Positions 1 through 20,509 of a DNA stretch of 24,000 nt are shown here, in pieces. A program made the position numbers and the translations under genes. The stretch is taken from assembly GCA_020631895.1 (NCBI GenBank), contig JACKGR010000002.1, positions 1 to 24,000 of the forward strand, given 5' to 3'. Position 1 is the first letter of the stretch. The number at the start of each line of letters is the position of its first letter. This DNA is from Candidatus Nomurabacteria bacterium. GTDB taxonomy: Bacteria > Patescibacteriota > Saccharimonadia > Saccharimonadales > UBA7683. The notes under the pieces are model-generated. The model did no database searches. It worked only from the letters and a program-made list of their open reading frames with translations, and was not told where the DNA came from.

Positions 1-272
1 AATCCACCAATTATTATCATGATAACCGATACTGTACCAACTACTATCGAGAAAATGTTTATGATCTTCTTGGCAAGCTCTGAAAATGATTCACCGTCTT
101 GTTCGCTACAGTCAGTTGAATCAGGATCTGCACCACCAGTACTGTTAACACCTCGACAAACATTGTTTCTGATATCTGCGTGCACTGCGGATGGCAACAA
201 TACTGCTGAAGGCGCTACGAGTAGAGCGATTGCTGCAAATGTTGTTACAAATTTTTTAATAATAGATCTCAT
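1..272 (-). CDS. VirB2/TrbC-type T4SS pilin-like protein, paralogue P0 (3' end cut by window edge)
   Basis: Absent from the ORF track because it runs off the window. Reverse-strand ATG at 272-270 translates without stops to MRSIIKKFVTTFAAIALLVAPSAVLLPSAVHA|DIRNNVCRGVNSTGGADPDSTDCSEQDGESFSELAKKIINIFSIVVGTVSVIMIIIGG. This gives a signal peptide, one Cys pair, and the start of the same hydrophobic core as the 367..825 paralogue (KKIINIFSIV.GTV.VIMIIIGG nearly identical). The + strand ORF 19..306 is its antisense shadow. Confidence 0.75.
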   Translation of the reverse strand, partial: MRSIIKKFVTTFAAIALLVAPSAVLLPSAVHADIRNNVCRGVNSTGGADPDSTDCSEQDGESFSELAKKIINIFSIVVGTVSVIMIIIGG

Positions 273-305
273 TATATTTAATTCCCTTTCATTATGTATG
301 TGCTG

Positions 306-334
306 ATTATATCGAACGTTTACGTTTACTTCAA
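306..334 (-). promoter_or_regulatory. sigma70-like promoter for pilin paralogue P0
   Basis: On the minus strand: TTGAAG (334-329), exactly 17 nt spacer, TATAAT (311-306). It lies about 34 nt upstream of the P0 ATG, with an AAGGGA Shine-Dalgarno-like element in between. Called on sequence only. Confidence 0.45.
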
Positions 335-366
335 TAGATGCACTAACTATTTAACCGATACTATTA

Positions 367-825
367 CTAAGGTGTGCCTTTTGGTGGGGTAGTTGGAGCT
401 GTTTTTGGTGGGGTAGTTGGAGTAGCTGGTGATTTTGTATCTGTATTAGATAACACAAATATAACTATAACTTGGGCGAACAACACCACTACAAGTCCAA
501 TAACCGCATACATGATTGTATCTTTAGCGGATTTTGTGGCCGAACTATCTCCTCCGGAGATGATATAGCGGAAACCACCGATTATTATCATGATTACTGC
601 GACCGTTCCGATTACAATCGAGAATATGTTTATTATTTTTTTAATTAATCTCTGAAAGTCACTTCTACCAGTCGTTGCATCATCGCAATCAGCTGTAGGG
701 TCTACAAGCTTAATACCATCACATGCATCTGTTTTAGCATCTGCATGAACAGCTACTGCCGGCACTAGACCAAGCGAACCCACTAGACCAAGTGATATTA
801 ATAACATTTTAATTTTTTGCAACAT
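367..825 (-). CDS. VirB2/TrbC-type T4SS pilin-like protein, paralogue P1, with Pro/Thr-rich C-terminal tail
   Basis: 152-aa ORF. Signal peptide (AVAVHA|DAK) and exactly one Cys pair (DAC...ADC). Two hydrophobic helices joined by a short polar loop: IINIFSIVIGTVAVIMIIIGGFRYIISGGDSSATKSAKDTIMYAVIGLVVVLFAQVIVIFVL. AAGGAG (835-840, minus strand) lies 9 nt upstream of the ATG. Tail is TKSPATPTTPPKTAPTTPPKGTP. Confidence 0.8.
   Translation of the reverse strand: MLQKIKMLLISLGLVGSLGLVPAVAVHADAKTDACDGIKLVDPTADCDDATTGRSDFQRLIKKIINIFSIVIGTVAVIMIIIGGFRYIISGGDSSATKSAKDTIMYAVIGLVVVLFAQVIVIFVLSNTDTKSPATPTTPPKTAPTTPPKGTP
379..422 (-). repeat. exact 20-nt direct repeat (period 24 nt) encoding the PTTPPK tail of P1
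   Basis: TTTTGGTGGGGTAGTTGGAG occurs at 379-398 and again at 403-422, identical and separated by 4 nt. In the coding frame this yields two P-T-T-P-P-K units. Confidence 0.8.
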
Positions 826-850
826 TTACATTATCTCCTTAATGACTACA

Positions 851-1285
851 TTATAGATTGCTTAGCACAAAAGTAATAATTGTTTGTGCAAAAACTGCCA
901 CTAACAACCCGACGACCGCATATAATATGGTGTCTTTTGCAGCTTTTATTGCCGTACCATCGCCACCAGACACAATGTATCTAAATCCACCAACCATAAT
1001 CATTATGATAGATATGGCTCCAGTGAGTAAGGTAACTGTCTGAGTTATCTTATAAAATATTGATGAAGGACCCAGGATAGGCGACGAGTCGTTATCAATA
1101 GCATCTCCGCCGCGTGGATTCTCTTGAGCATCCTTACAAAAAGGGGAATCCGCGGCCTCGATGCAAGGATCGGTCGGATTAGCAAAATCAGCTGCAGATA
1201 CCGTAGGAGCAGTTGCAAGCACAAGCTGAATTAACACAGCAAAGGCGGCTATAATAAGGATTATTTTTTTAAAAAAAGTCCTCAT
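851..1285 (-). CDS. VirB2/TrbC-type T4SS pilin-like protein, paralogue P2
   Basis: The track ORF 851..1519 is over-extended and its first 78 codons overlap P3. The internal ATG at 1285-1283 gives MRTFFKKIILIIAAFAVLIQLVLATAPTVSA|ADFANPTDPCIEAADSPFCKD... This has a signal peptide, one Cys pair, and the core GAISIIMIMVGGFRYIVSGGDGTAIKAAKDTILYAVVGLLVAVFAQTIITFVL. Confidence 0.8.
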   Translation of the reverse strand: MRTFFKKIILIIAAFAVLIQLVLATAPTVSAADFANPTDPCIEAADSPFCKDAQENPRGGDAIDNDSSPILGPSSIFYKITQTVTLLTGAISIIMIMVGGFRYIVSGGDGTAIKAAKDTILYAVVGLLVAVFAQTIITFVLSNL

Positions 1286-1287
1286 AA

Positions 1288-1698
1288 TCAAGATAAAGCT
1301 CCAAATATAAAGCTTGTGATAACAAACACTGATATACCGAGAACTAATCCAATAACTGCATACATTATTGTTTTTTTGGCAGTTGCAATGGCGTTTCCAT
1401 CTCCTCCTGATAATGCATACCTCATGCCTCCGATAACTATAAATAGTAGCGACAACATGGTCAGAGCCCCAAATGCAAGTTTTGTTAGTGTCTGAATTAT
1501 TGAAGTGTCTGATCCACAACCGTAAGTCGGGAGACCAATTACACTAGCATCAAGCAGAGCCTTATTGTTTGAGCAGGGCACTCTAGTTGCCGCTTTTGAG
1601 GCAACCGCAAAATTTGGACTAAAAATCGTTAAAAGTAACGACACAAAGACAACTAATCCAACAATTGATCCTTTACTGAACCTAAATAACTTGCTCAT
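1288..1698 (-). CDS. VirB2/TrbC-type T4SS pilin-like protein, paralogue P3
   Basis: 136 aa. Signal peptide (FAVAS|KAAT), one Cys pair (VPC...YGC), core LSLLFIVIGGMRYALSGGDGNAIATAKKTIMYAVIGLVLGISVFVITSFIF. Its start overlaps the P4 stop in ATGA (1695-1698). Its stop TGA lies 2 nt before the P2 ATG. Confidence 0.8.
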   Translation of the reverse strand: MSKLFRFSKGSIVGLVVFVSLLLTIFSPNFAVASKAATRVPCSNNKALLDASVIGLPTYGCGSDTSIIQTLTKLAFGALTMLSLLFIVIGGMRYALSGGDGNAIATAKKTIMYAVIGLVLGISVFVITSFIFGALS

Positions 1699-2048
1699 GT
1701 TACTTTAAAAACCGTTCCGATAATAAATCCAACAAGCCAGGCCGACAAAATACAAACAAACAACCCAATCAACGCATTTGTCATGGTGTTTCTGGCAGAT
1801 TTTATGGCTTCTGGTGAACCCTGGCTGGTAACCATTTTAAACGCTCCAAATATAAAAAATACGATTGATACTAAAGCGCCGATTCGGAGCAGGGCGTCAG
1901 TTATTCCAGCTAGAACCAACCATACACTACCGACCCCATATGTCTTAAAGTCAAGATTTTTACATGAACCCGGCATGTACTTATACCAACCCTCAATAGT
2001 AAAGAACGTGTTTCCGCAACTTGCCGCTAGATTTTCTAAAAATGACAT
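1695..2048 (-). CDS. divergent pilin-like two-TM protein, paralogue P4 (no recognisable signal peptide)
   Basis: 117 aa. Begins directly with a Cys-pair segment (ASC...GSC). Then a two-helix core LLRIGALVSIVFFIFGAFKMVTSQGSPEAIKSARNTMTNALIGLFVCILSAWLVGFII, with the same helix-loop(..A.K.A..T...A)-helix layout as P1-P3. An in-frame TAG at 2085-2087 and no alternative start upstream fix the ATG at 2048. Confidence 0.65.
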   Translation of the reverse strand: MSFLENLAASCGNTFFTIEGWYKYMPGSCKNLDFKTYGVGSVWLVLAGITDALLRIGALVSIVFFIFGAFKMVTSQGSPEAIKSARNTMTNALIGLFVCILSAWLVGFIIGTVFKVT

Positions 2049-2084
2049 CTTGTAAATAACTATATTATAGATACTTATTAGAGT

Positions 2085-2918
2085 CTATAGGCTAAATACG
2101 CCACCTGGAATTAGCCACTGTAGTAGGCCGAACATAAACGCATAAATAACGATTCCAATCACGACATTATATATTCTAGTTTTGGCTCCAGCGACCGCTT
2201 GAGGATTATCCTGAGCTGCAGCGTATTGTATGCCAGATATTACCAAAAAGAATACCGCCAAGATACCTAGACCTAAAGTGAACCACTTAATATATGACGA
2301 GACCCTTGCTACAAATTTTGACTTAGCTCCTGCATTATCAATATTTATAGCACCTCCTGCGCTTGTACTGTCGTCGACAGGACCCGGTGGATCAGCCCAG
2401 TCGGATTTATAATCGCTTAAGAACTGTTGCTGTATCCGTCTTACACAATCAGCATCCTGGTCATCGACAGTACCACAGTCTTCGATTATCTGCTTTAACG
2501 CATCATAGAATTTGGTACTTTTATTGGGCAAAATATAACAACCCTCTGGAACCCTAGCTTCGTCAGCCGGCGAACGGCTAGCGTCAAACCTCGGAGCGCA
2601 GAATTGCGGAATAGTAAATCCAGCAAATCTTTTTAATTCTGTTGGTTTACGGTATACAAAGCCTAGAAAAGCCTGTTTGCACTCTTCTTGTTTATCAGAA
2701 TTAGCCAATCCACACCACTGATTTGTTAAATCATCAAATTTACGTCTGCTCATTGTGCAATTATATGGTTTATCTTGACTACACCCAGACGGACCCAAAG
2801 CGTCAGCTTTTACTTCTTTTTGCATCAAAATAAATACTGACGATGTTAGTAATATGCCGAGTAATACCAACAACTTAGTCAATTTAAAAGCGTAGTGTGT
2901 TTTTCCAATTAAATTCAT
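2085..2918 (-). CDS. pilin-core protein with about 190-aa 8-Cys N-terminal ectodomain, paralogue P5
   Basis: 277 aa. N-terminal signal/anchor (LLVLLGILLTSSVFIL) followed by a soluble region with 8 Cys. C-terminal two-helix module: WFTLGLGILAVFFLVISGIQYAAAQDNPQAVAGAKTRIYNVVIGIVIYAFMFGLLQWLI, homologous in layout to P0-P4. Confidence 0.7.
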   Translation of the reverse strand: MNLIGKTHYAFKLTKLLVLLGILLTSSVFILMQKEVKADALGPSGCSQDKPYNCTMSRRKFDDLTNQWCGLANSDKQEECKQAFLGFVYRKPTELKRFAGFTIPQFCAPRFDASRSPADEARVPEGCYILPNKSTKFYDALKQIIEDCGTVDDQDADCVRRIQQQFLSDYKSDWADPPGPVDDSTSAGGAINIDNAGAKSKFVARVSSYIKWFTLGLGILAVFFLVISGIQYAAAQDNPQAVAGAKTRIYNVVIGIVIYAFMFGLLQWLIPGGVFSL

Positions 2919-3018
2919 AGTATATAGCTAACATATTATACTAAATCATTAACTCGTTAAATGGGGCCTTTTTAAATATTTGTAATCCCAGGGCTACTTG
3001 TTTACAATAAGCTTAATA
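2919..3018. promoter_or_regulatory. divergent control region between the pilin array and the T4SS-like operon
   Basis: 100-bp AT-rich gap between divergently oriented gene sets. Minus-strand TATAAT (2940-2935) lies 16 nt upstream of the P5 ATG with no good -35. Plus-strand candidate is TTAAAT (2957-2962)-N18-TGTAAT (2981-2986). A 6-bp inverted repeat AGTATA/TATACT sits at 2919-2924 and 2937-2942. Promoter function is not demonstrable from sequence. Confidence 0.35.
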
Positions 3019-5955
3019 ATGAATAGTAAAAAACTAAGATCTGGTGGCAGACAAAAGGGTACTTTGATTAGATTAATTGTACTTGTTGTTGTTTTATTTA
3101 ACTCACTTTTAAGCGGATCTTTAATTAAGCCATCACCAGCTCAGGCCGCCAGTGGGTTTAGCTCTCAACTAAATTTTAGTGATCCACCGTTTGACACTTC
3201 GGATGAATACGGGATTTGGGTAGACCGAGCGAGAATAATGATATATCAAAGCAGTACCCCAATCACTGACGACATAGAGGATGGTGACCTTGGCGGACAA
3301 AAATTTGAGGCTGATCCTAACGAGGGACTCAACGGAGGCACAGTAGAATATATTTCTGGATGCCAAAGTCTTACAGTAACCTTTGATAATGCAGAGGATA
3401 ATCCGGACAGCGGTCAACTGACTAAGTGTGACGGGACGCCAGTGGGCGTAACATTGTTAAACAAAGATTATGCCACTATAGACGGCTACATAAGTGAAGA
3501 CTCAGAAAAAATCGATATGGTTAGATACGTTAATGGCATTAACGGGTGCGGTACGTTTGATACGGGTGGTAACTTAAGTGGAGATTATAAAAGTGACGGT
3601 ACTTTTGAAAAGGACGGCTCAGTATGGAAACTAACTGGTAATACATCGGCTGTAGTTTATGACTACAACAGCAATGGTAGCAATAGGGCTGGCCGTGCAA
3701 AGCAGAAGAAGACATCTAGCTGTAACTCAATCGGTAGAGTAACGCCATCTGCACTTGTTGCGGCGGGAATCGTAATTACCGGCGGCAGCAACGCTACAAT
3801 TTCGTATGCGGGTGGCAGTAGCGGAGGAAGACCGGTAAATATTCTGAAAGGCTTTAACCGTGGCCAAGTAACGAGCGCTGTAGAAAATAAAATAGATAAT
3901 TACAATGCCATTAGAGGCAGGATTTCGCGTCTCACTCAATATTTTCAAGACAGTTCAGCCGGCCAAGCTGCTATTACAAAATGTAAAAACGACACAGGTA
4001 CGACGGGCGATAGGGCAGCAATCGTCCAATATTTAGCACAGAACAATCAGGCAGGGCTAAACCCATTCACAGACTGTATGCTACGCGAGTTAGAGGGAGA
4101 TCAAGACTTTGAAGACGCTCTAAACTTCAATTACTCAGGTAATTTTGATACCGATATAATTGCAGACACAAGTGAGAACTGTGGTTCTGCTGGTCCACCA
4201 ATAATCGGTCCGATGGCATGCTGGGCAGTTGAATATGTTTATGATGCGCTCTTTGCAGGCTTTAAGGCCGTAATAGATTATTTTGCGTCTCCGTCAGACA
4301 TGTTCACGGATCAAAATAGCACACTTGAGCAATCGATGAAGAACCTAAGGGACTTTGCCAATATTATATTTGTGCTAGCTTTTCTGGTTGTTGTTTTTCA
4401 GTATATGACCAACATTAGCGTAGTCGATGCCTACTTTATCAAAAAGTTTATACCGCGACTTGTTATTGCTGTTGTTTTGGTACAGGCGGCGTTCTTTATA
4501 ACGTCAGAATTGAATGCCTTTTTCTATGATCTTGGTAACAGTGTTCAGACAATAGTTTTTCAGGGCTCATCGCCAGGCGAACTTGCAGTTACAAATGGTG
4601 CCGCAACGATAGCATTGGTCTACGCTTTGGCCCTTGGGCCTGCACTTTTGGGGTTAGTCTTGGTGCTAGGCATAATCATGCTTCTGGTGCTTCTTGTCAC
4701 GATTATTGTTTTATCAATCAGATACGTCTTGATAATTGTACTGGCAATTTTAGCGCCACTGGCATTTGCGGCGCTGGCAATACCCCAGCTCGAGGGTATG
4801 ACAAAAAAGTGGTTCTCTATGTATATAAAACTGCTGTTAATGTATCCAATAATAATGTTCTTTATCGCTGCATCGGCGGTTGTAGCAGGAGCAATTAGTG
4901 GAGGTGGCACAATAATGGCGTTTCTCAGTTTAGTTGTCGCATTCTTACCATTTATAATTTTACCGTTTACGTTTAAATTTGCCGGCGGAATCATGGGTAC
5001 AGTAACAGCAAAGCTTGGCAGTCTGGCCAAAAAGGGCGCCAAGATGGGATACAATCAAGGCAGGAAAGCCTACGACAACTCCTACACAGGCATGAAACGA
5101 GCCAAAGAGAAAGAAGTTAAGAAGGGAATTAAAGCCGACAGAGCAAGCACCGCAGCAGCAGGCACCTTTATGAGAAAAGTAGATGGTATGAGCCCAGCAA
5201 GGAGACGGCGATTATTTGGGAGTGACCAAGAAAAATATATGGGCATTCTTCAAGATAGAGAAACAAAGCGACTTAAAGAGGAGGCAGAAAGCGAACTTGC
5301 AACCAAACTTAGGACCGCTCCTGACCAAAAAGCAAAAGTTAAGATAATGGATACGCATTACAGAGAAGCTATGGCTAGGCGCGACTATCACGCCGCCGGT
5401 GCCGCCTACGACCAACTTGTCGGGGCCAAGGCACACGATGAACTTGCAGCCATTCAGGCTGACGCTGTTAGTGGAGTAGATTCTTCTGTAGGCACTTCTA
5501 CCAGCGGGGCTGTATGGGGTGACGCCGGAAGAGCGGCATATAACAAACAACAGGGAGACAACTTTAGTAAACTTGGTGAGTTTGGTGCCCACCTTCGTGG
5601 CGATGTAAGCGCAACAACGAACCTTGATACTCACCGAGCAGAGAACCTTAGGAATTTGAGTGCAGATGAGTTAGCCATTGCGCCCGCAAAAACATGGGAA
5701 GCATTCCATGCAGTTGCCCCTACCGAGGCTACAGAAAGATGGGTTAACATACACGCTGCAGGCGGAAGCCCGGCGACCAAATTAAAACCAGAAGCCAAGG
5801 CTATATTGGCAACAGATCCTAATGTTATCGCAACGATGAATGAATCAGATGCTGATATAGCCGCGAGATTAGCCGGAATCCCTCTAGGTTCAAGGACCGC
5901 TGCTATAGATGCAGCTAAAGCTCAACGAGATAAATACAAAGCAGCATTCTCATAG
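3019..5955 (+). CDS. extended VirB6/TrbL/PrgH-like polytopic T4SS membrane protein
   Basis: The track ORF starts at TTG 2998. The first ATG, at 3019, gives MNSKKLRSGGRQKG + h-region + AQA|AS. An ectodomain of about 400 aa carries 8 Cys. It is followed by at least 5-6 long hydrophobic segments: ANIIFVLAFLVVVFQY, LVIAVVLVQAAFFI, LGLVLVLGIIMLLVLLVTIIVLSI, VLIIVLAILAPLAFAALAI, LLLMYPIIMFFIAASAVVAGAI, MAFLSLVVAFLPFIILPF. The C-terminus is a Cys-free K/R/A/E-rich tail of about 300 aa. The assignment rests on topology and on its position directly 5' of the PrgI-like and VirB4 genes, not on a recognised signature. Confidence 0.55.
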   Translation: MNSKKLRSGGRQKGTLIRLIVLVVVLFNSLLSGSLIKPSPAQAASGFSSQLNFSDPPFDTSDEYGIWVDRARIMIYQSSTPITDDIEDGDLGGQKFEADPNEGLNGGTVEYISGCQSLTVTFDNAEDNPDSGQLTKCDGTPVGVTLLNKDYATIDGYISEDSEKIDMVRYVNGINGCGTFDTGGNLSGDYKSDGTFEKDGSVWKLTGNTSAVVYDYNSNGSNRAGRAKQKKTSSCNSIGRVTPSALVAAGIVITGGSNATISYAGGSSGGRPVNILKGFNRGQVTSAVENKIDNYNAIRGRISRLTQYFQDSSAGQAAITKCKNDTGTTGDRAAIVQYLAQNNQAGLNPFTDCMLRELEGDQDFEDALNFNYSGNFDTDIIADTSENCGSAGPPIIGPMACWAVEYVYDALFAGFKAVIDYFASPSDMFTDQNSTLEQSMKNLRDFANIIFVLAFLVVVFQYMTNISVVDAYFIKKFIPRLVIAVVLVQAAFFITSELNAFFYDLGNSVQTIVFQGSSPGELAVTNGAATIALVYALALGPALLGLVLVLGIIMLLVLLVTIIVLSIRYVLIIVLAILAPLAFAALAIPQLEGMTKKWFSMYIKLLLMYPIIMFFIAASAVVAGAISGGGTIMAFLSLVVAFLPFIILPFTFKFAGGIMGTVTAKLGSLAKKGAKMGYNQGRKAYDNSYTGMKRAKEKEVKKGIKADRASTAAAGTFMRKVDGMSPARRRRLFGSDQEKYMGILQDRETKRLKEEAESELATKLRTAPDQKAKVKIMDTHYREAMARRDYHAAGAAYDQLVGAKAHDELAAIQADAVSGVDSSVGTSTSGAVWGDAGRAAYNKQQGDNFSKLGEFGAHLRGDVSATTNLDTHRAENLRNLSADELAIAPAKTWEAFHAVAPTEATERWVNIHAAGGSPATKLKPEAKAILATDPNVIATMNESDADIAARLAGIPLGSRTAAIDAAKAQRDKYKAAFS

Positions 5956-5961
5956 GTTTTT

Positions 5962-6858
5962 ATGGCGACACACAAAGTACCCCAAGACGTAGAGACAGAA
6001 GATAAGATAATTGGCTTTTTAAGCCTTAAACAGTTCATCTTTGTGGTTGTTGGCATCGGCTTTGGTTGGCTGACTTTCTTCTTTGCTACTAGAGTCAACG
6101 TGATTCTTGCACTCATTTGGATTCCTTTTACTGTCGTACCGTTAGTCCTTGGACTCTACCAACGTAAAGACCAGCCGGTAGAAGTGTTTTTGGCATCGGC
6201 ACTTAGGTTTTATTTTAAACCTCGTAAGAGAAAATGGGATCAAGAGGGCTATGAGGAGAGAGTACTAGTGACCGCACCACCAAAAGTTGAGCATCACTAT
6301 ACCAAAGACTTCTCTGGTGAGGAAGCCATGAGCCGATTGACAAGGTTATCTCGAATGATGGATTCACGTGGTTGGGCAAGTAAGCTCAGTGGTGAGTGGC
6401 AAAATCCACAGTTGGCAGCTGCGGCTACGTCTGACGCACGACTCGTTCAGCCGGCTAATTTAGCCACAAATGATTCCGGTTACTTACAAACCTATATGCA
6501 GCCAACTGATGTCATGGACGAGCAAACCAGCGTAGTTGCAAAGGACTTTCAATACAAAATTGACGCAACTGACACTAGTGCCCAGGTAGGTGCTATGAAG
6601 ACCATGGATGCAGCCAGAGCAACTAGTGATAACCCCGCACCACATGTAGAAAAGTATCCCGATATGAGACAATCGGTGGTAAAGCCAATTACAGCTGATA
6701 CTATTACAAGCTCCGCTCCTGACCCTGTGGCACCACCAGTAGTTCAAGATGATGCAACTGAGCCAGAAAACGATGTCCAGCAGCCTATTAAGTCCTCAAC
6801 CTACGAGCCAAAAGTTCAAAAATCAGACGATGGCTCAGTCGAAATCTCCCTCCATTAA
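5962..6858 (+). CDS. PrgI/TcpE (VirB3-like) family membrane protein with long low-complexity C-terminus
   Basis: 298 aa. The N-terminus MATHKVPQDVETEDKIIGFLSLKQFIFVVVGIGFGWLTFFF...ILALIWIPFTVVPLVLGLY shows the VP.D....EDKI.G....Q lead-in plus two TM helices typical of PrgI-family proteins in Gram-positive conjugation loci. It lies upstream of VirB4. The remaining 190 aa or so are acidic, P/T/S-rich and probably disordered. Confidence 0.6.
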   Translation: MATHKVPQDVETEDKIIGFLSLKQFIFVVVGIGFGWLTFFFATRVNVILALIWIPFTVVPLVLGLYQRKDQPVEVFLASALRFYFKPRKRKWDQEGYEERVLVTAPPKVEHHYTKDFSGEEAMSRLTRLSRMMDSRGWASKLSGEWQNPQLAAAATSDARLVQPANLATNDSGYLQTYMQPTDVMDEQTSVVAKDFQYKIDATDTSAQVGAMKTMDAARATSDNPAPHVEKYPDMRQSVVKPITADTITSSAPDPVAPPVVQDDATEPENDVQQPIKSSTYEPKVQKSDDGSVEISLH

Positions 6859-6869
6859 ATTAGGTGGTA

Positions 6870-7057
6870 GGGAATAGGTAGTGGGTGGTAGGGATTATAA
6901 GAGAGCAGATGAGAGGCAAAGAATAGCAGGTAAACATATTTGTCATTCCTGCCCGAGTTTATACTCGACTCGATCGGGTACAGAAATGATGGGAATCTCC
7001 CATATTCTGTTTCCCTCACTCCAAAACCCTACTACCTAGTACCTAAAACCTATTGCC
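6870..7057 (+). repeat. long imperfect inverted repeat / candidate structured RNA inside the operon
   Basis: 6870-6893 pairs with 7027-7041 plus 7049-7057, leaving a 7-nt bulge at 7042-7048. 22 of 24 positions pair, counting two G-U pairs that exist only in the + strand transcript. Inner arms (6943-6957 vs 6969-6989) pair partially. The 11-nt direct repeat GGTGGTAGGGA occurs at 6863-6873 and 6884-6894. No ORF of 60 aa or more lies in 6859-7141. Confidence 0.5.
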
Positions 7058-7141
7058 TGCGCCCCCGGGCGCTATACTTGCGTAGCAGGGGTAGTCCATG
7101 TCATACTCTTTAGGTAATTAGGGTGTGGCTCTATTAATTTT

Positions 7142-7999
7142 ATGCAACCAAATCAACCGACGATACCATCGCAACAACCCATGCAACCCGCTGGACAGCC
7201 AGCGGTACCTTCGCAACCACAGCAAGCAACTGCGCCCCAACAAGAACAGCAGCCACTAAGCCCATCTGTCGCTCCTAAAAACCCAAACAGCACCCAAAAT
7301 ACACTTGAGATTGCAGCCATTCGTGATGGTGTAGTTATCATGAACGACGGAAGTTTTAGATCGGTTGTGATGGCAAAGAGCATTAACTTTGATCTTATGA
7401 GTATTAACGAGCAAGAGGCTGTTGAATTTGCTTATCAGAGCTTTTTAAACTCATTGTATTTTGATATTCAAATCCAAGTCAGATCACGCAAAATTGATAT
7501 GCGACCTTATCTCGAGAAGCTAGGTCACATCAGAACAGAGATGAGTAATATGCTTCTAGGAATGTTGATGGAGGATTATATATACTTTATCGATGACCTT
7601 GTATCGCAAACCAATATCATGAATAAACAATTTTATGTAGTTGTGCCATTTATGCCAATTGTTTCAGCCAGTGGGGCCGTTAATGCCGGAAAAGGACTAG
7701 TTGGAGGGCTTATCGGTGGTAAAAAGAACAAAGGTGTTATAAAAATTGATGAGGTAAATCTAGAAAAAGCCAAGACTGAGCTCACAAACCGAGTCCAGAG
7801 TGTAGTAAGTGGACTGTCAAATCTTGGAGTTCAATCAATACCACTAGACACTCAAGAGCTTATTGAGCTATATTACAATGCATTTAATCCTGATACTGCT
7901 ACACGTCAAACACTAAAGCAAGCTGATCAGTTGGCAGTTCCTGTAGTAACAAAAGGTGAGGGACAAGCGCCCAAGCCAAATCTCGGAGTAGGTTTATAA
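7142..7999 (+). CDS. VirB4 N-terminal-domain-like protein (separate ORF) with Q/P-rich leader
   Basis: 285 aa with no TM segment. After a Q/P-rich leader of about 45 aa comes TLEIAAIRDGVVIMNDGSFRSVVMAKSINFDLMSINEQEAVEFAYQSFLNSLYFDIQIQVRSRKIDMRPYLEKL...FYVVVPF...LDTQELIELYYNAFNP. From memory, this resembles the first 200 aa or so of single-chain Gram-positive VirB4 homologues (Tn916 Orf16 / PrgJ / TcpF type). Its stop overlaps the next start in TAATG (7997-8001). Confidence 0.5.
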   Translation: MQPNQPTIPSQQPMQPAGQPAVPSQPQQATAPQQEQQPLSPSVAPKNPNSTQNTLEIAAIRDGVVIMNDGSFRSVVMAKSINFDLMSINEQEAVEFAYQSFLNSLYFDIQIQVRSRKIDMRPYLEKLGHIRTEMSNMLLGMLMEDYIYFIDDLVSQTNIMNKQFYVVVPFMPIVSASGAVNAGKGLVGGLIGGKKNKGVIKIDEVNLEKAKTELTNRVQSVVSGLSNLGVQSIPLDTQELIELYYNAFNPDTATRQTLKQADQLAVPVVTKGEGQAPKPNLGVGL

Positions 8000-9921
8000 T
8001 GGCTATATTTGGAGGTCAAAAAAACCAAACTGATCCAGTAACGCTGGCCCAACAACAACGTCAGCGTGAACAGCAAGAGGTTGATAGTGCATTCAGACAA
8101 GGTATTTCTGAGATGCGTGATTTTATCGCACCAAGTAGTCTTGAGATTGAATCTAGCTACTTTAGACTAGGCACAATGTACGGACGCTCCTTTTATGTAT
8201 ATGGCTACCCGAGGCAAATCTTTACAGGTTGGCTATCTTCAATCGTAAACATGGATGAAGAGATTGACCTATCAATGTTTATATATCCAGTAGCAAGCCA
8301 AGTTGTTTTAGAGAACTTGCGCAAAAAAGTTAGTCAACTTGAAGCTGGTCTACAAATTGACGCAGAAAAAGGTCGCGTAAGAGATCCGGCTAAACAATCA
8401 GCCATAGTCGACGCCGAGGAACTTAGAGACAGTTTACAAATAGGAGAGGAGAGATTCTTCCGGCTTGGTCTATACATCACGACATATGCAAAGAGCCTTG
8501 AGGAGTTAGATTTTATACAGCACAAGGTCGAGACCGTTCTTGGACAACAACTAATATACTCAAAGCCAGCCACAGTACAGATGGAGCAAGGCCTAAACTC
8601 GACAATGCCACAATTTACTGACCAACTTCAAGTACGCCGAAACATGAATACAGGGGCTCTTGCCACCAGTTTTCCGTTCACCTCAGCAGATTTAACGCAG
8701 GAGAACGGTATTTTGTATGGCATAAATATGCACAATAATGGCCTAGTACTATTTGATAGATTCTCACTAGAAAACGCCAATATGGTGGTCTTTGCCAAAT
8801 CTGGTGCTGGTAAATCATTTGCTGTAAAACTTGAGGCTGTCAGATCAATGATGATGGGTACCGAGATTGTAATTATAGATCCCGAGAATGAGTATGAGCG
8901 ACTATGTGATGCAGTAGGTGGTAGCTATATCAGAATGAGTCTCAGCTCAACAACTCGTGTTAATCCATTTGACCTACCACAAGTTATTGATCAAGATGAT
9001 GCAGATAACGCGCTTAGATCAAATTTAATTACTCTTCACGGTCTAATGAGATTAATGATGGGTGGCGCACTAAGTCCTAACGAAGAGGCTGATCTTGACC
9101 AAGCCCTTATCGATACTTATGCAAAAGCCGGTATAACTGGCGATCCTCTTACCCATCAAACCCCGCCACCAACAATTAATGACCTCTACGAGACGCTACT
9201 TCACATGCAAGGCTCAGGTCCAAGCATGGCTCAGCGACTCAGAAAATATACCACAGGGACATTTGCTGGAATATTCTCACAACAAAGTAATGTTGATATC
9301 AACAACAACATGGTTGTCTTCAACATTCGCGATCTTGAAGATGAACTCCGGCCAGTAGCCATGTATATCGTACTTAATCACATCTGGAACAAAACAAAAT
9401 CTGATAAAAGAAAAAGAAACCTGATTATTGATGAGGCTTGGCAACTTCTTAAGTACCAGGACTCGGCTAATTTTATGTTCTCCCTGGCAAAGCGCGCACG
9501 AAAATACTATTTGGGACTCACAACCATATCTCAGGATGTTGAGGATATGATGAGTTCGCAAACAGGACGAGCTATTGTATCTAACTCGTCGATGCAATTA
9601 CTTCTTAAGCAATCAACCTCGGCTGTTGATGTTCTCTCTGCCGTATTTAAACTTACTGGTGAAGAGAAGAAGCGTCTTAGCCAGTTCCCGGTAGGACAAG
9701 GGTTATTATTTGCCGGACAAAATCACGTCCATATTCAAATCATAGCCAGCCCAACCGAGACCAGCCTTATAAGCACAAACCCGGAGGAGATGCGTAAGGT
9801 TCAAGAGGTTGCCGCTAGAGCACAAGAAGCCTATCAAGTTATGACTCAAGCAAATAACACCGGAAACATCGCCGCAAATCAACATTCAGTCACGCCCACC
9901 CCTGCAGAGCCAACAGAGTAA
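7999..9921 (+). CDS. virB4: VirB4/TrbE/PrgJ-family T4SS ATPase (C-terminal two-thirds of the canonical protein)
   Basis: 640 aa. APSSLEIESSYFRLGTMYGRSFYVYGYPRQIFTGWLSSIV (VirB4 middle-domain pattern). Walker A FAKSGAGKSF. Walker B NLIIDEAWQLL. Downstream TISQDVEDM motif. GGAG lies 10 nt upstream of the ATG. Confidence 0.9.
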   Translation: MAIFGGQKNQTDPVTLAQQQRQREQQEVDSAFRQGISEMRDFIAPSSLEIESSYFRLGTMYGRSFYVYGYPRQIFTGWLSSIVNMDEEIDLSMFIYPVASQVVLENLRKKVSQLEAGLQIDAEKGRVRDPAKQSAIVDAEELRDSLQIGEERFFRLGLYITTYAKSLEELDFIQHKVETVLGQQLIYSKPATVQMEQGLNSTMPQFTDQLQVRRNMNTGALATSFPFTSADLTQENGILYGINMHNNGLVLFDRFSLENANMVVFAKSGAGKSFAVKLEAVRSMMMGTEIVIIDPENEYERLCDAVGGSYIRMSLSSTTRVNPFDLPQVIDQDDADNALRSNLITLHGLMRLMMGGALSPNEEADLDQALIDTYAKAGITGDPLTHQTPPPTINDLYETLLHMQGSGPSMAQRLRKYTTGTFAGIFSQQSNVDINNNMVVFNIRDLEDELRPVAMYIVLNHIWNKTKSDKRKRNLIIDEAWQLLKYQDSANFMFSLAKRARKYYLGLTTISQDVEDMMSSQTGRAIVSNSSMQLLLKQSTSAVDVLSAVFKLTGEEKKRLSQFPVGQGLLFAGQNHVHIQIIASPTETSLISTNPEEMRKVQEVAARAQEAYQVMTQANNTGNIAANQHSVTPTPAEPTE

Positions 9922-9941
9922 TGGTATACTAAGCGGTATAT

Positions 9942-12900
9942 ATGGACGACGACAAAGGCTCAAGTACAGATCTGTTAGAAAGACCAGATTCTGATGATGC
10001 TGGTCCTTCTTTAGGCGACAGAGCGTCGGGTATTGGTGACGGTGTTAGATCAGCAGCAGACTCAGCAAAAAAGGTTATCGGAAAAGCGTCAGGTGGCAGT
10101 GGTGATGGTCTAGGAAGTTCACTAGCTGGTGGCCTTAGTAGTCTAGCTGGACATGGAAGCGCGGGTAATAGTATTGATGGAATAAAGCCAAAGTTGCCAG
10201 GAGTTGCAGGTGGCGATGGGGCTGATAAAACTCCAGGCATGTTTAAGGGTCTCGAGGGTGGAGCAAACCCTGCTAACAAAAACGATACAAGTGGCGATTC
10301 CGAAAACCCCAGTGCCAAAGATTTTGCCAGGAAGGCCGGTAAAAATGCTAGTCAGAAAGTAGAACAAGCTGCAAAAGACATCGCTCAAACTGCCAAAGAG
10401 GTCAAGCATGCCGCTACTGCGGTTGCCACTCTTGGTGCAAACGCTTTAGATGATGCGGAGCTGGCTAAAGATCTTGCGCAAGCAGCCTTGCACCCGATAC
10501 AAACCGCTAAACGTTATGGACGGGTTGCTCTATATCTAATCGGCTTCTTTTTTATTCAGACTTTTATTGTCTTTGCGGCAATTGGTGTTATCTTCTTTGG
10601 AATATACAAGGTTTATCTAATGACAATGGATATTGTAAACATAAATCCTACAGATGTAGTGACAGAGCTCCGCGTAGAAAACGAGATGGCAAGTTGGCTA
10701 ATATCCTCAGTTGGTGATTTGGCATATCAGCGTGATATAGCAGCCCAAAGACAGCCTGGAGTGGCCGTCGCACAAAATCGACCTAACTTGCCCGAGCCGC
10801 AAAGTAGCCCAGAAACTTCAAAAATGTTCCAGACTTGGGATAATGCAGGTCTTGCTGCAAAATTTATGGATGAATACCACGCAAGATTTGAACCATCTAA
10901 TGGATCTGCAGCAGGAGATAGCACTAATCCAGGAAATTGGGATCTTATTGTCGGTAATAAAAATTTTGGCAACGTTAACGGTACAAAAGCTCGGGCATTT
11001 ATCTCAATATTTGCCGACCACACAACACACTGGAGAGATATCTACACCAGAGAGGCACTACAAGGCGTAGCGACAAACTCATTTGATACCCAATCGTTTA
11101 AACTTAATTTGCCTGATCCAGAATACAATATAGGAAACAGCAGAGTTAATACAACAAAACAACTCGTCAGCAGCACGGCCAAACCGATAACCAGTAAGTC
11201 TATCACCTATTACAATTGTTTAATTGCGGGAGGTGATAGCTGTAACTCCTTAGGATTAGGATCAACTGGCTCACCAACAAACGTATCGACCGATGCCTCT
11301 GGTGGTATAGTTTCAACAATAATTAGTAACTTAAGAAACGATATTAGAACCAGAGTTCTACAAAACACAGTCGGTGTTGAACAAATTGGTCAATATGCTA
11401 GTAGCACTGCCGAACAAGTTACACCCGAGACCAGCACATATGACACCAAACGAATCCTATCAGCTAATATCAGAACAGGGTCATCAGACACAATTTTATC
11501 CAACCTTCCTAAAGATGCCAACGGAGCCCCTAAAAATAGCGCCCTGCTAGATCTTTATGATAGATATAGAGAATCTGTAAATAATGATAACTTCTCAAGA
11601 GTAAACTATGATAGAGAATCTCGACAGAGTGTTGCTCTAGCGGAGAACTACTTCGTTGCCGGGGGACAACTTGTAAATAACGAGATGGGTTTACTAGATA
11701 GCTGGGCACTAACCGAGAATCTAAGTATTGTTACACAGTCACCATTGTTTAGACGGGCGGTTATCGGCAACCCAATCGGGGTCTTTGCAGAGGACGAGGC
11801 AGATGATGGAGTAAGGTCGTGCCAAAAGATATATAATGATCTATCACCTGTAGGAGACATATCGGACAACCTAGATCGCGACACTACAAACAACTCTTGC
11901 TTCAGGCTTGCACTAGTTCCTGATAAGGCCACTGTTTTGAGCGATAGATCAGCAAATAGAATTTATAACATACTTGAGGAGAAAAATGAGGAAGTTAATA
12001 AATCCAACGGAGTGTTTAGTGTTGGTGATGCACTAAATGCCGCTTTGCAAAGATACAATAACCGAGAGATAAGATCATCTCCACTAGCGACTGAGAGCAT
12101 TAAGGTGGCTCAAGATTTAAGTCCAGATTTTGATGGATATACAAATAATGTTTATGGAGTATCTAAGACAGGTGCTGAAATCAACGGTGATGCTTACGAT
12201 AGTATGAGGCTGGCTGCCGAAGCTCTTTGGACCAAGGCATTGATCGACGATCAAGTTGGTATTGGCGCCAGCTACCAAACCGATGAACAGACAGCAGAAG
12301 TTATGCGTTATGCCCAGAAAATTGATCGCGAGAAGATGGCATTTAAACCTCTGGGGGAACGATTGTTCTCACTTAAGGATTCTAAATCACTAACGGCAAA
12401 GCTTGCCATGATGACGCCAACCAACAAAAAAGATGGGTTAAAGAGCACACTAGCCCTGTTAAAGCCGAGTAACCTTACATCTGCCGTAGCTAGTCGAATG
12501 GTGCCATCAACTTTTGCCCAGGACACAGCCCCAGTTAATCCCCTAAATGCTATCAGAACTGGATATGCACTGGATGATCCATCAAACAGAATGTCAGGTG
12601 ATCAAATTTGGCAACAATATAGCTGCGACTCTGGCGGTCCGACTCAATCAGAGTCTCAACCAAATGGAGTTCCCTTTAATATAGCTACAAATACAAACCC
12701 CTGTAAACGTGAGGCTGTGCTCTCAAGAATCACCACCTGTTACTTTGATACAGAGGATAGTTGCTCTATGGTTGGTAGTGGGTCTACACCAACGCCAGCA
12801 GCAACAACCAGTGGTACCGTTGGAGACATTGGCGAGAGCTCTGATAGCGTACCGTGTGCTGAAGGATCAAATGACATCGGTAATGTAGAATCTCGATACG

Positions 12901-13388
12901 CGGGGTCACTCAGAAAAGATATTCCTCTTATTATTAAGTTGTGTCAGGTACCTGATATTGGAGGACGTGGCAATGATACTAGTGGTAACAATATCGAGGG
13001 TGGAATTGTTGTAAACTCTCGAGTATCCGGTGCCTGGGTGGCTCTCGGTAGAGCAGCCAAATCAGCCTCACCAGCTATCAATCTAACTGGTAGTTCATTC
13101 AGACTAGCCGACTCCTGCGGCGGGGGAGGCGACGGATCGCTTTGCGCCCGACCAGGCACATCTATGCATCAGCTTGGTATTGCGGTAGATTTTAGCGATA
13201 TGGGGTCCAGTGGTGGTAGTACATCAAGTTGTAGTGGCAGAAAAGGTGCTCGAGGTGATCCAAGATGGGATTGGTTATTTAGCAATGCCCAGAACTACGG
13301 AATCAAACAGTATTCCTACGAACCATGGCATTGGGACACAAACCCAGGAGCAAATAGATGTGACAGTTCGTCACCGGCGGTATACTAA
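9942..13388 (+). CDS. bitopic T4SS-associated protein with C-terminal VanY/M15-type (LAS) peptidoglycan peptidase domain
   Basis: 1148 aa. The N-terminal 195 aa or so are G/S/D/A-rich and Cys-free. One TM segment follows (VALYLIGFFFIQTFIVFAAIGVIFFGIY). The ectodomain of about 900 aa has 14 Cys. The C-terminus SFRLADSC...ARPGTSMHQLGIAVDFS...NAQNYGIKQYSYEPWHWD carries the VanY-type H-x6-D and E-x-W-H zinc motifs. Confidence 0.75.
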   Translation: MDDDKGSSTDLLERPDSDDAGPSLGDRASGIGDGVRSAADSAKKVIGKASGGSGDGLGSSLAGGLSSLAGHGSAGNSIDGIKPKLPGVAGGDGADKTPGMFKGLEGGANPANKNDTSGDSENPSAKDFARKAGKNASQKVEQAAKDIAQTAKEVKHAATAVATLGANALDDAELAKDLAQAALHPIQTAKRYGRVALYLIGFFFIQTFIVFAAIGVIFFGIYKVYLMTMDIVNINPTDVVTELRVENEMASWLISSVGDLAYQRDIAAQRQPGVAVAQNRPNLPEPQSSPETSKMFQTWDNAGLAAKFMDEYHARFEPSNGSAAGDSTNPGNWDLIVGNKNFGNVNGTKARAFISIFADHTTHWRDIYTREALQGVATNSFDTQSFKLNLPDPEYNIGNSRVNTTKQLVSSTAKPITSKSITYYNCLIAGGDSCNSLGLGSTGSPTNVSTDASGGIVSTIISNLRNDIRTRVLQNTVGVEQIGQYASSTAEQVTPETSTYDTKRILSANIRTGSSDTILSNLPKDANGAPKNSALLDLYDRYRESVNNDNFSRVNYDRESRQSVALAENYFVAGGQLVNNEMGLLDSWALTENLSIVTQSPLFRRAVIGNPIGVFAEDEADDGVRSCQKIYNDLSPVGDISDNLDRDTTNNSCFRLALVPDKATVLSDRSANRIYNILEEKNEEVNKSNGVFSVGDALNAALQRYNNREIRSSPLATESIKVAQDLSPDFDGYTNNVYGVSKTGAEINGDAYDSMRLAAEALWTKALIDDQVGIGASYQTDEQTAEVMRYAQKIDREKMAFKPLGERLFSLKDSKSLTAKLAMMTPTNKKDGLKSTLALLKPSNLTSAVASRMVPSTFAQDTAPVNPLNAIRTGYALDDPSNRMSGDQIWQQYSCDSGGPTQSESQPNGVPFNIATNTNPCKREAVLSRITTCYFDTEDSCSMVGSGSTPTPAATTSGTVGDIGESSDSVPCAEGSNDIGNVESRYAGSLRKDIPLIIKLCQVPDIGGRGNDTSGNNIEGGIVVNSRVSGAWVALGRAAKSASPAINLTGSSFRLADSCGGGGDGSLCARPGTSMHQLGIAVDFSDMGSSGGSTSSCSGRKGARGDPRWDWLFSNAQNYGIKQYSYEPWHWDTNPGANRCDSSSPAVY

Positions 13389-18486: not shown

Positions 18487-18754
18487 AAATTCTCCTTATT
18501 TAGACCAGACTGTTATTAATTGTCTTTTATTTTTTAAACAAATAGTAGTAATAGTAGGCACAGTGGAAACAGTGTATAAACCGGTCGACATTACCTGTTG
18601 GAAGGATGCATATTGCCTGTGGATTTGTGATAGTAAAGACGCAGATTGGATACTAGACTTACCCACACACACTAAGTTACTAAGTAGATTTTGTGGGTAA
18701 GTTAGACTTCTACACAAAGTTTTACTTGCCTTGTCAGAAGGTTGTACACATTTT
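18487..18754. other. dnaA-dnaN intergenic DnaA-box cluster with AT-rich tract (oriC candidate)
   Basis: DnaA-box-like 9-mers against the TTATCCACA consensus:
- TTACCCACA, 18659-18667, 1 mismatch.
- TGTGGGTAA, 18692-18700, 1 mismatch, inverted. These two form a perfect 10-bp inverted repeat, CTTACCCACA / TGTGGGTAAG.
- TGTGGATTT, 18618-18626, 2 mismatches.
- TTGTACACA, 18742-18750, 2 mismatches.
An AT-rich stretch spans 18511-18558. Confidence 0.55.
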
Positions 18755-20089: not shown

Positions 20090-20122
20090 GATCCTCACAT
20101 TTTCTTTGTTTATCTCCACCAA

Positions 20123-20476: not shown

Positions 20477-20509
20477 TTATTACCACACAAAGTTTGGTAG
20501 AGTAGGTCT

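Follow-up and report, generated by a model that had tools for sequence, protein, structure and literature searches.

The locus described here raises the question of why one epibiont should carry a whole series of divergent pilin genes beside its T4SS, and whether the encoded proteins are alternatives to one another or parts of one structure. We consider it probable that the region is a VirB2-like pilin array belonging to a chromosomal, origin-proximal, monoderm-type T4SS of an epibiont of the Saccharimonadia (Saccharibacteria/CPR), and that its paralogues are specialised subunits of a heteromeric pilus. In the window (the entire 24,000-nt stretch of DNA analysed), positions 1–2918 are filled on the minus strand by six consecutive small ORFs. 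P5 (2085..2918) encodes a 277-aa pilin of the position-1 class and is followed by P4 (1695..2048; position-2 class, 117 aa), which has a stop codon five codons 5' of its ATG and whose own stop overlaps the start of P3 (1288..1698; 136 aa) as ATGA. P2 (851..1285) encodes 144 aa according to the gene call; the TTG start of a 222-aa ORF was rejected and the true ATG placed at 1285. P1 (367..825), with the ribosome-binding site AAGGAG, encodes a 152-aa pilin with a 24-residue Pro/Thr-rich C-terminal tail. P0 (272..<1) is represented by its first 90 codons, the coding sequence stopping at the window edge right after ...IIGGF. A longer contig, L001 (99.99% identity to the window over 9,945 nt), carries full-length P0 (L001:9674-10090; 138 aa), the product of which has a Sec-type leader ending in VHA directly before D and is assigned to PF18895/PF04956 in precomputed annotation. 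Beyond it on L001 lies a further pilin gene, P-1 (139 aa), so that the array consists of seven genes with P0 as the penultimate (sixth); the preliminary description, which counted six tandem paralogues, was correct for the window and one gene short for the array.

All five complete window proteins exceed the PF18895 T4SS_pilin gathering cut-off of 26.6 bits (P1 52.2, P2 37.2, P3 40.9, P4 42.7 and P5 31.2), and P1 also exceeds that of PF04956 TrbC (29.9 bits, cut-off 27.9), its many weak matches to unrelated membrane families all lying below the respective cut-offs. All seven proteins have two long hydrophobic helices (~30–40 residues each) forming a hairpin with a short conserved loop, and six of the seven have Sec-type leaders with AxA-like end sites. 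The AF2 model of P1 is a helical hairpin (H50-89/H94-128, mean pLDDT 78). Fold comparison with solved pilins gave no significant match, the best relevant one being 8dfu, a conjugation pilus from Aeropyrum pernix (E 5.5, TMt 0.63), and a profile search of PDB sequences gave none. A two-helix hairpin has a low information content for fold comparison. The earlier assignment to VirB2/TrbC-type pilins is upheld by the Pfam matches, the AF2 hairpin and the head-to-head arrangement of the array with genes for VirB6-like, PrgI/VirB3 and VirB4 proteins of a monoderm-type T4SS.

These T4SS genes all lie on the plus strand. A 985-aa polytopic membrane protein of extended VirB6/TrbL-like type (2998..5955), at the position of SEML1_0011 of Southlakia epibionticum ML1, is assigned to PF19590 TrbL_3 solely by precomputed annotation, hmmscan of this protein giving no match. 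It is followed by a PrgI/VirB3-like gene (5962..6858; PF12666, 56.1 bits) and by a VirB4 ATPase encoded by two genes (7142..9921), namely a TraC-like N-terminal part (7142-7999) and a P-loop part (7999-9921), a split that is identical in SEML1_0009/0008. Two large cell-wall hydrolases (9942..15796; one VanY, the other GDSL + phage-tail lysozyme + M23) are VirB1-type functions. The annotated dnaN and dnaA genes (17389..20122, minus strand) adjoin the T4SS and pilin locus, which therefore lies next to the replication origin, and perfect DnaA boxes are found at 20193 and 20247. No coupling protein or relaxase was recognized in the window.

The array appears from its gene content to be orthologous in layout to SEML1_0014-0019 of S. 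epibionticum, likewise a member of the Saccharimonadia with small, sequence-divergent pilin paralogues (Wang et al. 2023; PMC10633639). Compared by layout, the T4SS locus SEML1_0006-0020 is syntenic and likewise near dnaA, sharing in order lysozyme, large hydrolase, VirB4, a small gene, PrgI, VirB6-like, divergent PF18895 pilins, Hsp20 and ComF-like genes. It differs in having six pilin genes rather than seven, and a second VirB6-like gene plus an extra non-essential gene between core genes and array, while the eight-Cys 277-aa position-1 protein and the leaderless position-2 protein are features of the present locus. More widely, a 2025 survey (Quinonero-Coronel et al.; PMC12102498) reports 441 VirB2 arrays of 2–11 genes in Patescibacteria, most abundant in Saccharimonadia and including the TM7x 'Sec-secreted array' (PMC7427843); as here, tandem PF18895/PF04956 genes of low within-array identity lie near virB4, in a T4SS near dnaA without relaxase. 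The mean within-array identity in the survey is 25% and the quoted maximum 54%, a value exceeded by P0 and P-1 (68% over 118 aligned residues). This kind of array is therefore already published; the passages of the survey consulted (PMC12102498) say nothing of fixed positional classes, a Cys pair or a strain mosaic, and our additions are gene-order conservation, the Cys pair, the rate contrast and the strain mosaic.

The core motif given in the preliminary description fits none of the proteins when read literally, since its spacer is x5, not x4, and its [ST] position needs A as well; P0 and P-1 carry YAIVGL, and P0 also AGK. With these corrections the motif holds for P-1, P0, P1, P2 and P3, although the core of P0, cut by the window edge, is not readable within the window, and the loop of the distal members reads GGFRY..SGGD.....AK. 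The looser pattern proposed for P4 and P5 holds for P4 but not for P5. A DNA match claimed between 1-75 and 576-650 amounts to only 19/75 in that register, which was off by 4 nt; against 572-646 the identity is 56/75. 'Near-invariant' is a fair term for the cores of P-1, P0 and P1 (62–84% identity) but not for the remaining pairs, which fall to 46–52% (P1/P2 and P2/P3) and ~25% (P3/P4 and P4/P5), and over the array identity to P0 is 15–51%. The paralogues are saturated at synonymous sites (pS 0.56–0.95), so that in this genome they have not recently undergone gene conversion or exchanged cassettes with one another. P1, P0 and P-1 are lineage-specific duplicates that all map to one gene in more distant genomes, so that there may be some redundancy, at least among these three.

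As had been claimed, each of P0 to P4 has one Cys pair just before helix 1 (P0 39/55, P1 35/47, P2 41/50, P3 42/61 and P4 11/29). Among 158 pilins of related loci, the N-terminal segment contains exactly two Cys in 94 and three in 13 (one of them within the leader in those inspected), and Cys frequency is 3.2% in this segment versus 0.1% in the core; C35 and C47 of P1 are at least 90% conserved among 85 homologues. On these sequence comparisons the Cys pair is not due to chance but characterises the family, in whose proteins it lies in the putatively exposed N-terminal segment. For P1–P5, region-wide dN/dS is 0.02–0.08 in the cores and 0.15–0.33 in the N-terminal segments, which change 3–10 times faster, in agreement with the proposed conserved core and faster-diverging exposed segment. 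The values never exceed 1, and diversifying selection, as suggested, is not supported; nor are the paralogues decaying, P1–P5 being under purifying selection and the orthologues of P0 and P-1 intact (66–73% identity).

Two members form distinct classes, with class-specific loop and ectodomain signatures. P5 consists of a signal peptide, a ~130-residue helical ectodomain, a low-confidence linker and a very conserved pilin hairpin, and has eight Cys, not one pair, all invariant in 22 homologues; this 277-aa eight-Cys form is found in only ~22 database proteins, and its ectodomain matches no solved fold, VirB5 included. P4 carries C-x-F-x-[TI]-x-x-WY-K-Y-x-C in its N-terminal segment and is without a signal peptide in this clade, a poor simple fit with an exported N-terminal Cys loop.

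These classes keep their places in relatives. The 80 closest VirB4 loci are all from Saccharimonadia-type MAGs, and most of those with enough flank have an array of 5–8 pilins in the same place; six paralogues, described as unusual, are so against canonical T4SSs, but 5–8 is the norm in 24 related loci. Over these 24 arrays, best matches fall at the same position for 89% (position 1), 79% (position 2) and 71% (last) of comparisons, against a chance level of 17%, and the two closest species (L005 and L006) show perfect 7:7 colinear best-hit orthology with the present array. All six S. epibionticum pilins, the last array gene included, are GD/ES/ES in Tn-seq (PMC10633639); the genes are small, with 11–15 insertion sites behind each call, and essentiality of all but the last could partly reflect polarity. 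Conserved order together with this per-paralogue essentiality favours specialised subunits of a heteromeric pilus over interchangeable antigenic variants.

We propose that the subunits are inserted in the membrane, would be extracted by the VirB4/VirB6 machinery and then polymerised, as structures of conjugative pili and studies of PrgF suggest. Loop and helices would provide the conserved surface for packing and for the lumen, and the disulfide-stapled N-terminal segment would decorate the filament exterior, a location that would explain its fastest divergence. Positional orthology and the published Tn-seq suggest that the paralogues are non-interchangeable subunit classes in fixed gene order. 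P5, with its large Cys-rich ectodomain, is a candidate tip or initiator subunit by position and architecture only; P4 would be the position-2 subunit with a WY-motif loop, and P3 to P-1 shaft-type pilins whose number changes by duplication. The classes may jointly form a single heteromeric filament or conduit where epibiont and host meet. To our knowledge, a filament of these proteins has never been seen in any Patescibacterium, and we infer the pilus.

Alternatively, the paralogues may be interchangeable major pilins, each forming a homopolymeric filament with its own exposed loop and expressed alternatively to adapt the epibiont to different host strains or to evade host defences, which is the view of the preliminary description and is suggested in the survey by analogy with VirB2 paralogues of Bartonella and Anaplasma (PMC12102498). 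The fast N-terminal segments, the lineage-specific duplicates P1, P0 and P-1 with promoter-like sites at P0 and P-1, and the different expression of TM7x array genes between infection stages would all suit such a pool, as would a mosaic variant strain in which ~20% divergence of P3–P5 gives way, at a sharp breakpoint within P2 near 1142, to near-complete identity in P1 and P0. Pilin orthologues are also only 36–71% identical, versus 93% for VirB4; yet the VirB6-like (41%) and VanY (39%) proteins, likewise envelope-exposed, diverge equally fast, so that rapid change is not pilin-specific. An equivalent pool would not be expected to conserve order and class over 24 arrays, nor each of six genes to be essential on a single host, and dN/dS never above 0.33 and the lack of recent conversion further count against this explanation, which we regard as unlikely. 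A role of the proteins as effector or toxin subunits, exported by Sec and then delivered to the host by the T4SS, as proposed for TM7x by ptx/ptl analogy (PMC7427843), is compatible with the signal peptides in 6/7 proteins, the flanking T4SS genes and, for a protein-export role, the lack of coupling protein or relaxase in the window; every member, however, ends in a hydrophobic hairpin matching pilin HMMs, unlike a soluble effector, the reported pertussis S1 similarity is 11% identity and the Pfam profile search found no catalytic domain in any member, making this highly improbable. We give almost no credence to generic two-helix membrane proteins (holin-like or transporter accessory) resembling pilins by composition only, since, despite the insignificant fold and PDB-sequence searches and the weak matches of P1 to unrelated families, 5/5 complete proteins pass a PF18895 cut-off where those families miss theirs, linkage to VirB4/VirB6/VirB3 is constant across Saccharimonadia, loop motif and Cys pair are strongly conserved and there is no phage or lysis context.

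Viewed as heteromeric-pilus subunits, the proteins share with Gram-negative VirB2/TrbC/TraA pilins (T-pilus, F-pilus; PF04956) the leader, two-helix hairpin, short polar/basic loop and genes for VirB3, VirB4 and VirB6 alongside. They differ in their monoderm setting without outer-membrane complex or recognizable VirB5, in longer mature proteins with an extra ~25–35-residue N-terminal segment and predicted disulfide, and in being seven rather than one. Several divergent tandem virB2 copies by a T4SS also occur in Bartonella, Anaplasma and Rickettsia, obligately host-associated as well. Their T4SSs are diderm, P-type and aimed at eukaryotic cells, and antigenic variation is the favoured reading there; here, by contrast, order conservation and per-gene essentiality appear to point to specialisation. 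Closer in envelope type is PrgF of pCF10, which by description is likewise a small two-helix protein near virB6 of a monoderm FATA-type T4SS (ter Beek et al. 2025); it is VirB2-like, essential for conjugation and, in models, polymerises into a pilus on a pentamer of VirB6 (10.64898/2025.12.18.695078). Gram-positive plasmids have one pilus-modelling candidate per system in 16 examples inspected visually (10.64898/2025.12.18.695078), unlike the seven homologous genes in fixed order here, in a chromosomal, non-conjugative locus in which relaxase and coupling protein were not seen.

The suggestion that P0 has a separate promoter is plausible: TTGAAG-17-TATAAT (306..334, minus strand) upstream of P0 matches at 10/12 positions and is the best such site of the region, in which the total number of matches is not above that of shuffles, and a perfect-TATAAT site is kept at the equivalent intergenic position in L005 and L006. 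P-1 is also preceded by a promoter-like site, and through internal promoters before P0 and P-1 the distal shaft-type pilins might have their stoichiometry set separately; in TM7x, RNA-seq showed that array members differ in how their expression changes from one infection stage to another. P0 is followed by a hairpin with a T-run, and direct reading shows a minus-strand TATAAT (about 2938-2933) in the divergent intergenic region (2919..2997) between the pilin operon on that strand and the T4SS core operon on the plus strand.

The pilin genes occupy the left end of the window on the minus strand, head-to-head with a plus-strand T4SS operon and 80 bp from its VirB6-like gene. In transcription order they are P5 (2918..2085, 277 aa), P4 (2048..1695, 117 aa), P3 (1698..1288, 136 aa, its start overlapping the P4 stop), P2 (1285..851, 144 aa), P1 (825..367, 152 aa) and P0 (272..<1), of which 90 codons are visible before the window edge cuts it after ...IIGGF. 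The ATG at 1285, 2 nt after the P3 stop, is taken as the start of P2, the 222-aa ORF with a TTG start in the mechanical ORF list being over-extended. A longer contig (L001), 99.99% identical to window positions 1-9945, reaches 2.2 kb beyond the left edge, and its positions 9674-12001 continue the array past window position 1: full-length P0 has 138 aa and is followed by a seventh pilin (P-1; 139 aa, GTG start), then by a convergent Hsp20 gene and a ComF-like phosphoribosyltransferase gene. The plus-strand genes encode an extended VirB6/TrbL-like protein (2998-5955), PrgI/VirB3 (5962-6858), VirB4 as a TraC-like N-terminal part (7142-7999) and a P-loop part (7999-9921) with a stop/start overlap at 7999, and two large cell-wall hydrolases (9942-15796). 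Because VirB4 is divided between two genes in Southlakia epibionticum too (SEML1_0009 and SEML1_0008), the split in the window is not a frameshift. The VirB6-like protein is assigned to PF19590 (TrbL_3) in precomputed annotation, and hmmscan, run twice on the current copy of Pfam, found no family for it, a discrepancy that probably reflects a difference in library version. Farther along the window lie dnaN, dnaA, two perfect DnaA boxes, rnpA and yidC, so that the locus is chromosomal and origin-adjacent.

That the array encodes VirB2-family pilin homologues of the Saccharimonadia T4SS is well supported, and the array of six pilins noted in the preliminary description of this DNA is real, although several details needed correction; its reading as VirB2-type is supported. 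When whole proteins were scored by HMM, all five complete proteins passed the curated gathering cut-off of PF18895 (T4SS_pilin; 26.6 bits), with 52.2 bits for P1, 37.2 for P2, 40.9 for P3, 42.7 for P4 and 31.2 for P5; the window fragment of P0, in which the domain is cut off by the window edge, gave no PF18895 match, and full-length P0 and P-1 carry the family in precomputed annotation. The TrbC/VirB2 family (PF04956; curated cut-off 27.9 bits) was matched by P1 above its cut-off (29.9) and by P2 below it (23.9), with no match for P3-P5 in the same whole-protein scoring; precomputed annotation adds weak TrbC matches for P1 and P0. An AxA-like site follows the N-terminal hydrophobic stretch in six of the seven pilins, P4 having no leader. 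Seven tandem PF18895/PF04956 genes, with 15-51% identity to P0, lie near a Patescibacteria-clade virB4, and the linkage of pilins to VirB4, VirB6 and VirB3 is repeated in those related loci of Saccharimonadia whose upstream flank is long enough. A type IV pilin (T4P/T2SS pseudopilin) identity was rejected, as none of the seven proteins has a G|F/M-T-L-x-E prepilin peptidase site in its first 40 residues and the AF2 models of P1 and P5 have a hairpin at the C-terminus in place of one N-terminal helix. The lipoprotein (SPII) reading of the TM7x paper was likewise rejected, since none of the leaders, read directly, ends in a lipobox Cys.

The two-helix core had been described as near-invariant, which holds for the distal genes and fails toward the proximal end of the array: core identity between neighbouring paralogues is 84% for P-1/P0, 74% for P0/P1, 52% for P1/P2, 46% for P2/P3 and about 25% for both P3/P4 and P4/P5. 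The core motif first proposed matches none of the seven proteins as a literal regular expression; corrected to x5, [STA], [AG]K and YA[VI], it fits P-1, P0, P1, P2 and P3. The looser pattern put forward for P4 and P5 fits P4 but not P5. P0 and P1 are indeed similar in DNA sequence, but positions 1-75 match 572-646 (56/75) and not 576-650 (19/75).

Arrays of this kind are widespread among relatives of the window's organism. The window's VirB4 shares 71-93% identity with its 80 best matches from species-representative genomes, nearly all of which are labelled Saccharibacteria or Saccharimonadales. In most loci with enough upstream sequence, an HMM built from the seven pilins and iterated once on six-frame ORFs of all loci found a tandem run of 5-8 pilin genes oriented divergently to the T4SS core. 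The first impression of an unusual copy number is not supported within this lineage. All seven genes correspond one-to-one and in the same order to seven genes in each of the two closest species (L005 and L006). Across 24 arrays of at least five genes, the window's included, the best cross-genome match keeps its position for 89% of position-1, 79% of position-2 and 71% of last genes, chance being 17%. Each class has a signature: at position 1 the ectodomain is larger, with 2-10 Cys, and the loop is distinct; position 2 is marked by a C..F.[TF]P.WY[RK]GL..C segment and the distal genes by a GG[FI]RY..SGGD.....AKNTI loop. P1, P0 and P-1 all map to one gene in more distant genomes, and so are younger duplicates. 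A signal peptide is absent from P4 (1695-2048, -), whose ATG has a stop codon five codons before it, and equally from the P4 orthologues of L005 and L006; at position 2 in other Saccharimonadia, a clear leader precedes the C..F.TP.WY..L..C segment of most orthologues. Nine related loci (L008, L014, L021, L026, L027, L037, L040, L043 and L058) have a short position-3 pilin of 92-109 aa without leader or Cys, a type that the window's array does not contain.

A Cys pair in the N-terminal segment, the stretch before helix 1, is a family trait. The pairs reported in P0-P4 are present as described, and P5 has eight Cys, all invariant in 22 homologues. Exactly two Cys occur in this segment in 94 of 158 related pilins and three in 13, one of the three lying within the leader in the cases inspected; the Cys-Cys spacing is 5-29 residues (median 12). 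Cys makes up 3.2% of N-terminal segments against 0.1% of cores, and both Cys of P1 (Cys35 and Cys47) are at least 90% conserved in 85 P1 homologues.

Rapid divergence is common to the whole T4SS surface and not a property of the pilins alone. Relative to L005, VirB4 is 93% identical, the pilins 36-71%, the VirB6-like protein 41%, and the VanY and lysozyme/M23 proteins 39% each. Diversifying selection, suggested earlier for the exposed loops, is not borne out: Nei-Gojobori dN/dS, for which only the strain-level comparison is informative because synonymous sites are saturated against L005, the nearest species representative, is 0.15-0.33 in N-terminal segments and 0.02-0.08 in cores, below 0.35 in every region and nowhere above 1. 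The exposed parts are therefore fast-evolving without gene-wide positive selection. Recombination between paralogues, also proposed for examination, left no trace of recent gene conversion, synonymous differences being saturated in every neighbouring pair (pS 0.56-0.95 in cores and N-terminal segments). Comparison with a variant strain, represented by two contigs from other archives (L003 and L004), revealed a mosaic, with 2 differences from the window in 25-1090, 34 in 1091-1300 and 348 in 1301-2918. Nucleotide identity drops sharply from about 99.8% to about 80% inside P2, near window position 1142, at the junction of the ectodomain-coding part and the conserved core. Synonymous divergence rises across the break from about 0.02 to 0.3-0.9, which points to recombination or an assembly chimera and not to selection. 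Strains may swap blocks of the array. The break may alternatively be a chimera of metagenome assembly: the two contigs are 100% identical to each other and come from different archives, but their samples may be related.

The window's array is a further example of a kind already published. McLean et al. (2020; PMC7427843) reported that 4-6 small proteins with Sec signals are encoded in a conserved array beside the T4SS of TM7x and other Saccharibacteria, and compared the proteins to pertussis toxin subunits. That the array encodes effectors delivered by the T4SS, a reading close to that comparison, is unlikely beside the pilin profile matches. In the annotation of Wang et al. (2023; PMC10633639), the S. 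epibionticum proteins are pilin subunits, and the T4SS cluster in which they are encoded is essential. In the Tn-seq table of that study all six pilins (SEML1_0014-0019) scored GD/ES/ES, and S. epibionticum is the only species for which a requirement of each pilin for epibiotic growth is known. By gene size and order, every gene flanking its locus has a counterpart in the window and on L001 (lysozyme, a 3.3-kb gene, VirB4, a 0.9-kb gene, PrgI, a 3-kb VirB6-like gene, the pilins, Hsp20 and ComF-like), including the Hsp20/ComF-like end seen on L001 (SEML1_0020 and SEML1_0021), and the two loci share an origin-proximal position. In 383 Patescibacteria assemblies, a survey has described 441 arrays of 2-11 VirB2 genes, with a within-array identity of 25% on average and 54% at most; its authors drew a parallel with Bartonella and Anaplasma and suggested that the arrays confer versatility in host range (Quinonero-Coronel et al., 2025; PMC12102498). 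The same points recur in a FEMS review of 2025, which speculates that a pilus may serve as a conduit. Work on a Gram-positive T4SS showed its VirB2-like protein PrgF to be essential, and in modelling PrgF formed a pilus on a VirB6 pentamer (ter Beek et al., 2025). As array type, spread and essentiality are all published, the window raises no new question in these respects.

In the AF2 model of P1 (pLDDT 78), a leader helix and a short helix inside the Cys35-Cys47 loop precede a long hairpin (H50-89/H94-128); that of P5 has a helical ectodomain at residues 58-170 (block-mean pLDDT 69-90), a disordered linker and a hairpin (H201-237/H239-269). Neither model gave a significant PDB fold match. The best relevant Foldseek/PDB match of P1 was the archaeal conjugation pilus of A. 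pernix (8dfu), at rank 3 and with a non-significant E of 5.5 (TMt 0.63, rmsd 3.7 A, 75 columns), and a PDB sequence profile search from 85 P1 homologues found nothing relevant. A generic membrane protein family, with which these null structural results would agree, is unlikely beside the PF18895 scores and the repeated linkage to T4SS genes. A VirB5-like or adhesin fold for the P5 ectodomain received no support from structure comparison. In a collection of 5.8 billion proteins, only about 22 have the full-length form of P5, whose C-terminal hairpin is conserved far more strongly than those of the other pilins. P1 ends in a Pro/Thr-rich tail of 24 residues (DTKSPATPTTPPKTAPTTPPKGTP; window 367-441, -); of 165 related pilins, 12 end in a low-complexity tail of at least 14 residues, the position-5 orthologues of L005 and L006 among them, and the P1-type tail may be a linker that spans the cell wall or is glycosylated.

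In conjugative pili of solved structure, the loop between the helices is lumen-facing and the termini point outward. From this geometry we infer that the surface for packing and for the lumen would be made up of the conserved loop and helices, and that the N-terminal segment, stapled by a disulfide, would be the face that is exposed and changes fast; the mode of action of the proteins is inferred as well. Specialised subunits of one heteromeric structure fit better than interchangeable variants, given the gene order, the class signatures and the essentiality of every paralogue in S. epibionticum, and the younger distal duplicates with their own promoters, together with the strain mosaic, leave room for some added variation. 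We tentatively hypothesize, while considering the reading as a whole doubtful, that the array is the parts list of a conjugative-type heteropolymeric pilus of fixed architecture, blocks of which are exchanged between strains. P5, at position 1, would with its large disulfide-rich ectodomain be a tip, adhesin or initiator replacing the missing VirB5, P4 a position-2 adaptor with a conserved C..F.TP.WY.GL..C loop, and the remaining pilins several disulfide-stapled shaft subunits; strains would trade array blocks by homologous recombination, with breaks at conserved core-coding sequence, and such exchange would retarget the filament to new hosts. We know of no heteropolymeric VirB2-type pilus, and the window's array would, if this proved true, encode the first. 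Few functions have been shown to be essential for Saccharibacteria to live as epibionts, and the T4SS with its pilin array is among them. Added here are the positional classes, the disulfide-stapled segment, the fast exposed parts and the possible block swaps, which can guide experiments as to which subunits to co-model, which to tag and which cysteines to mutate.

The array may also be regulated in parts. The TTGAAG-17-TATAAT upstream of P0 (334..306) is, as had been noted, the best promoter-like site of the region; in L005 and L006 the P0 orthologue is likewise preceded by a promoter-like site whose TATAAT is perfect, and on L001 a hairpin and T-run follow P0 and a TG-extended TATAAT precedes P-1. 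Promoter and terminator counts over the whole region did not exceed those of shuffles, and weight rests only on such individual, positionally conserved sites. RNA-seq of TM7x has shown array members to change expression differently between infection stages.

The dnaA-rnpA intergenic region (20123-20509) contains perfect DnaA boxes (TTATCCACA) at 20193 (+) and 20247 (-) and a one-mismatch box at 20142, and is, to judge from these motifs, probably oriC, some 17 kb from the pilin array. P1 is identical to a protein from a MAG that bears the label 'Candidatus Nomurabacteria bacterium' (locus tag H6800_01030); this label is probably a misclassification, as all close relatives of VirB4 and the pilins are Saccharimonadia. 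Just beyond the yidC-jag genes lies a MazF/PemK-type toxin gene (22398-22757, -; PF02452, 89.5 bits).
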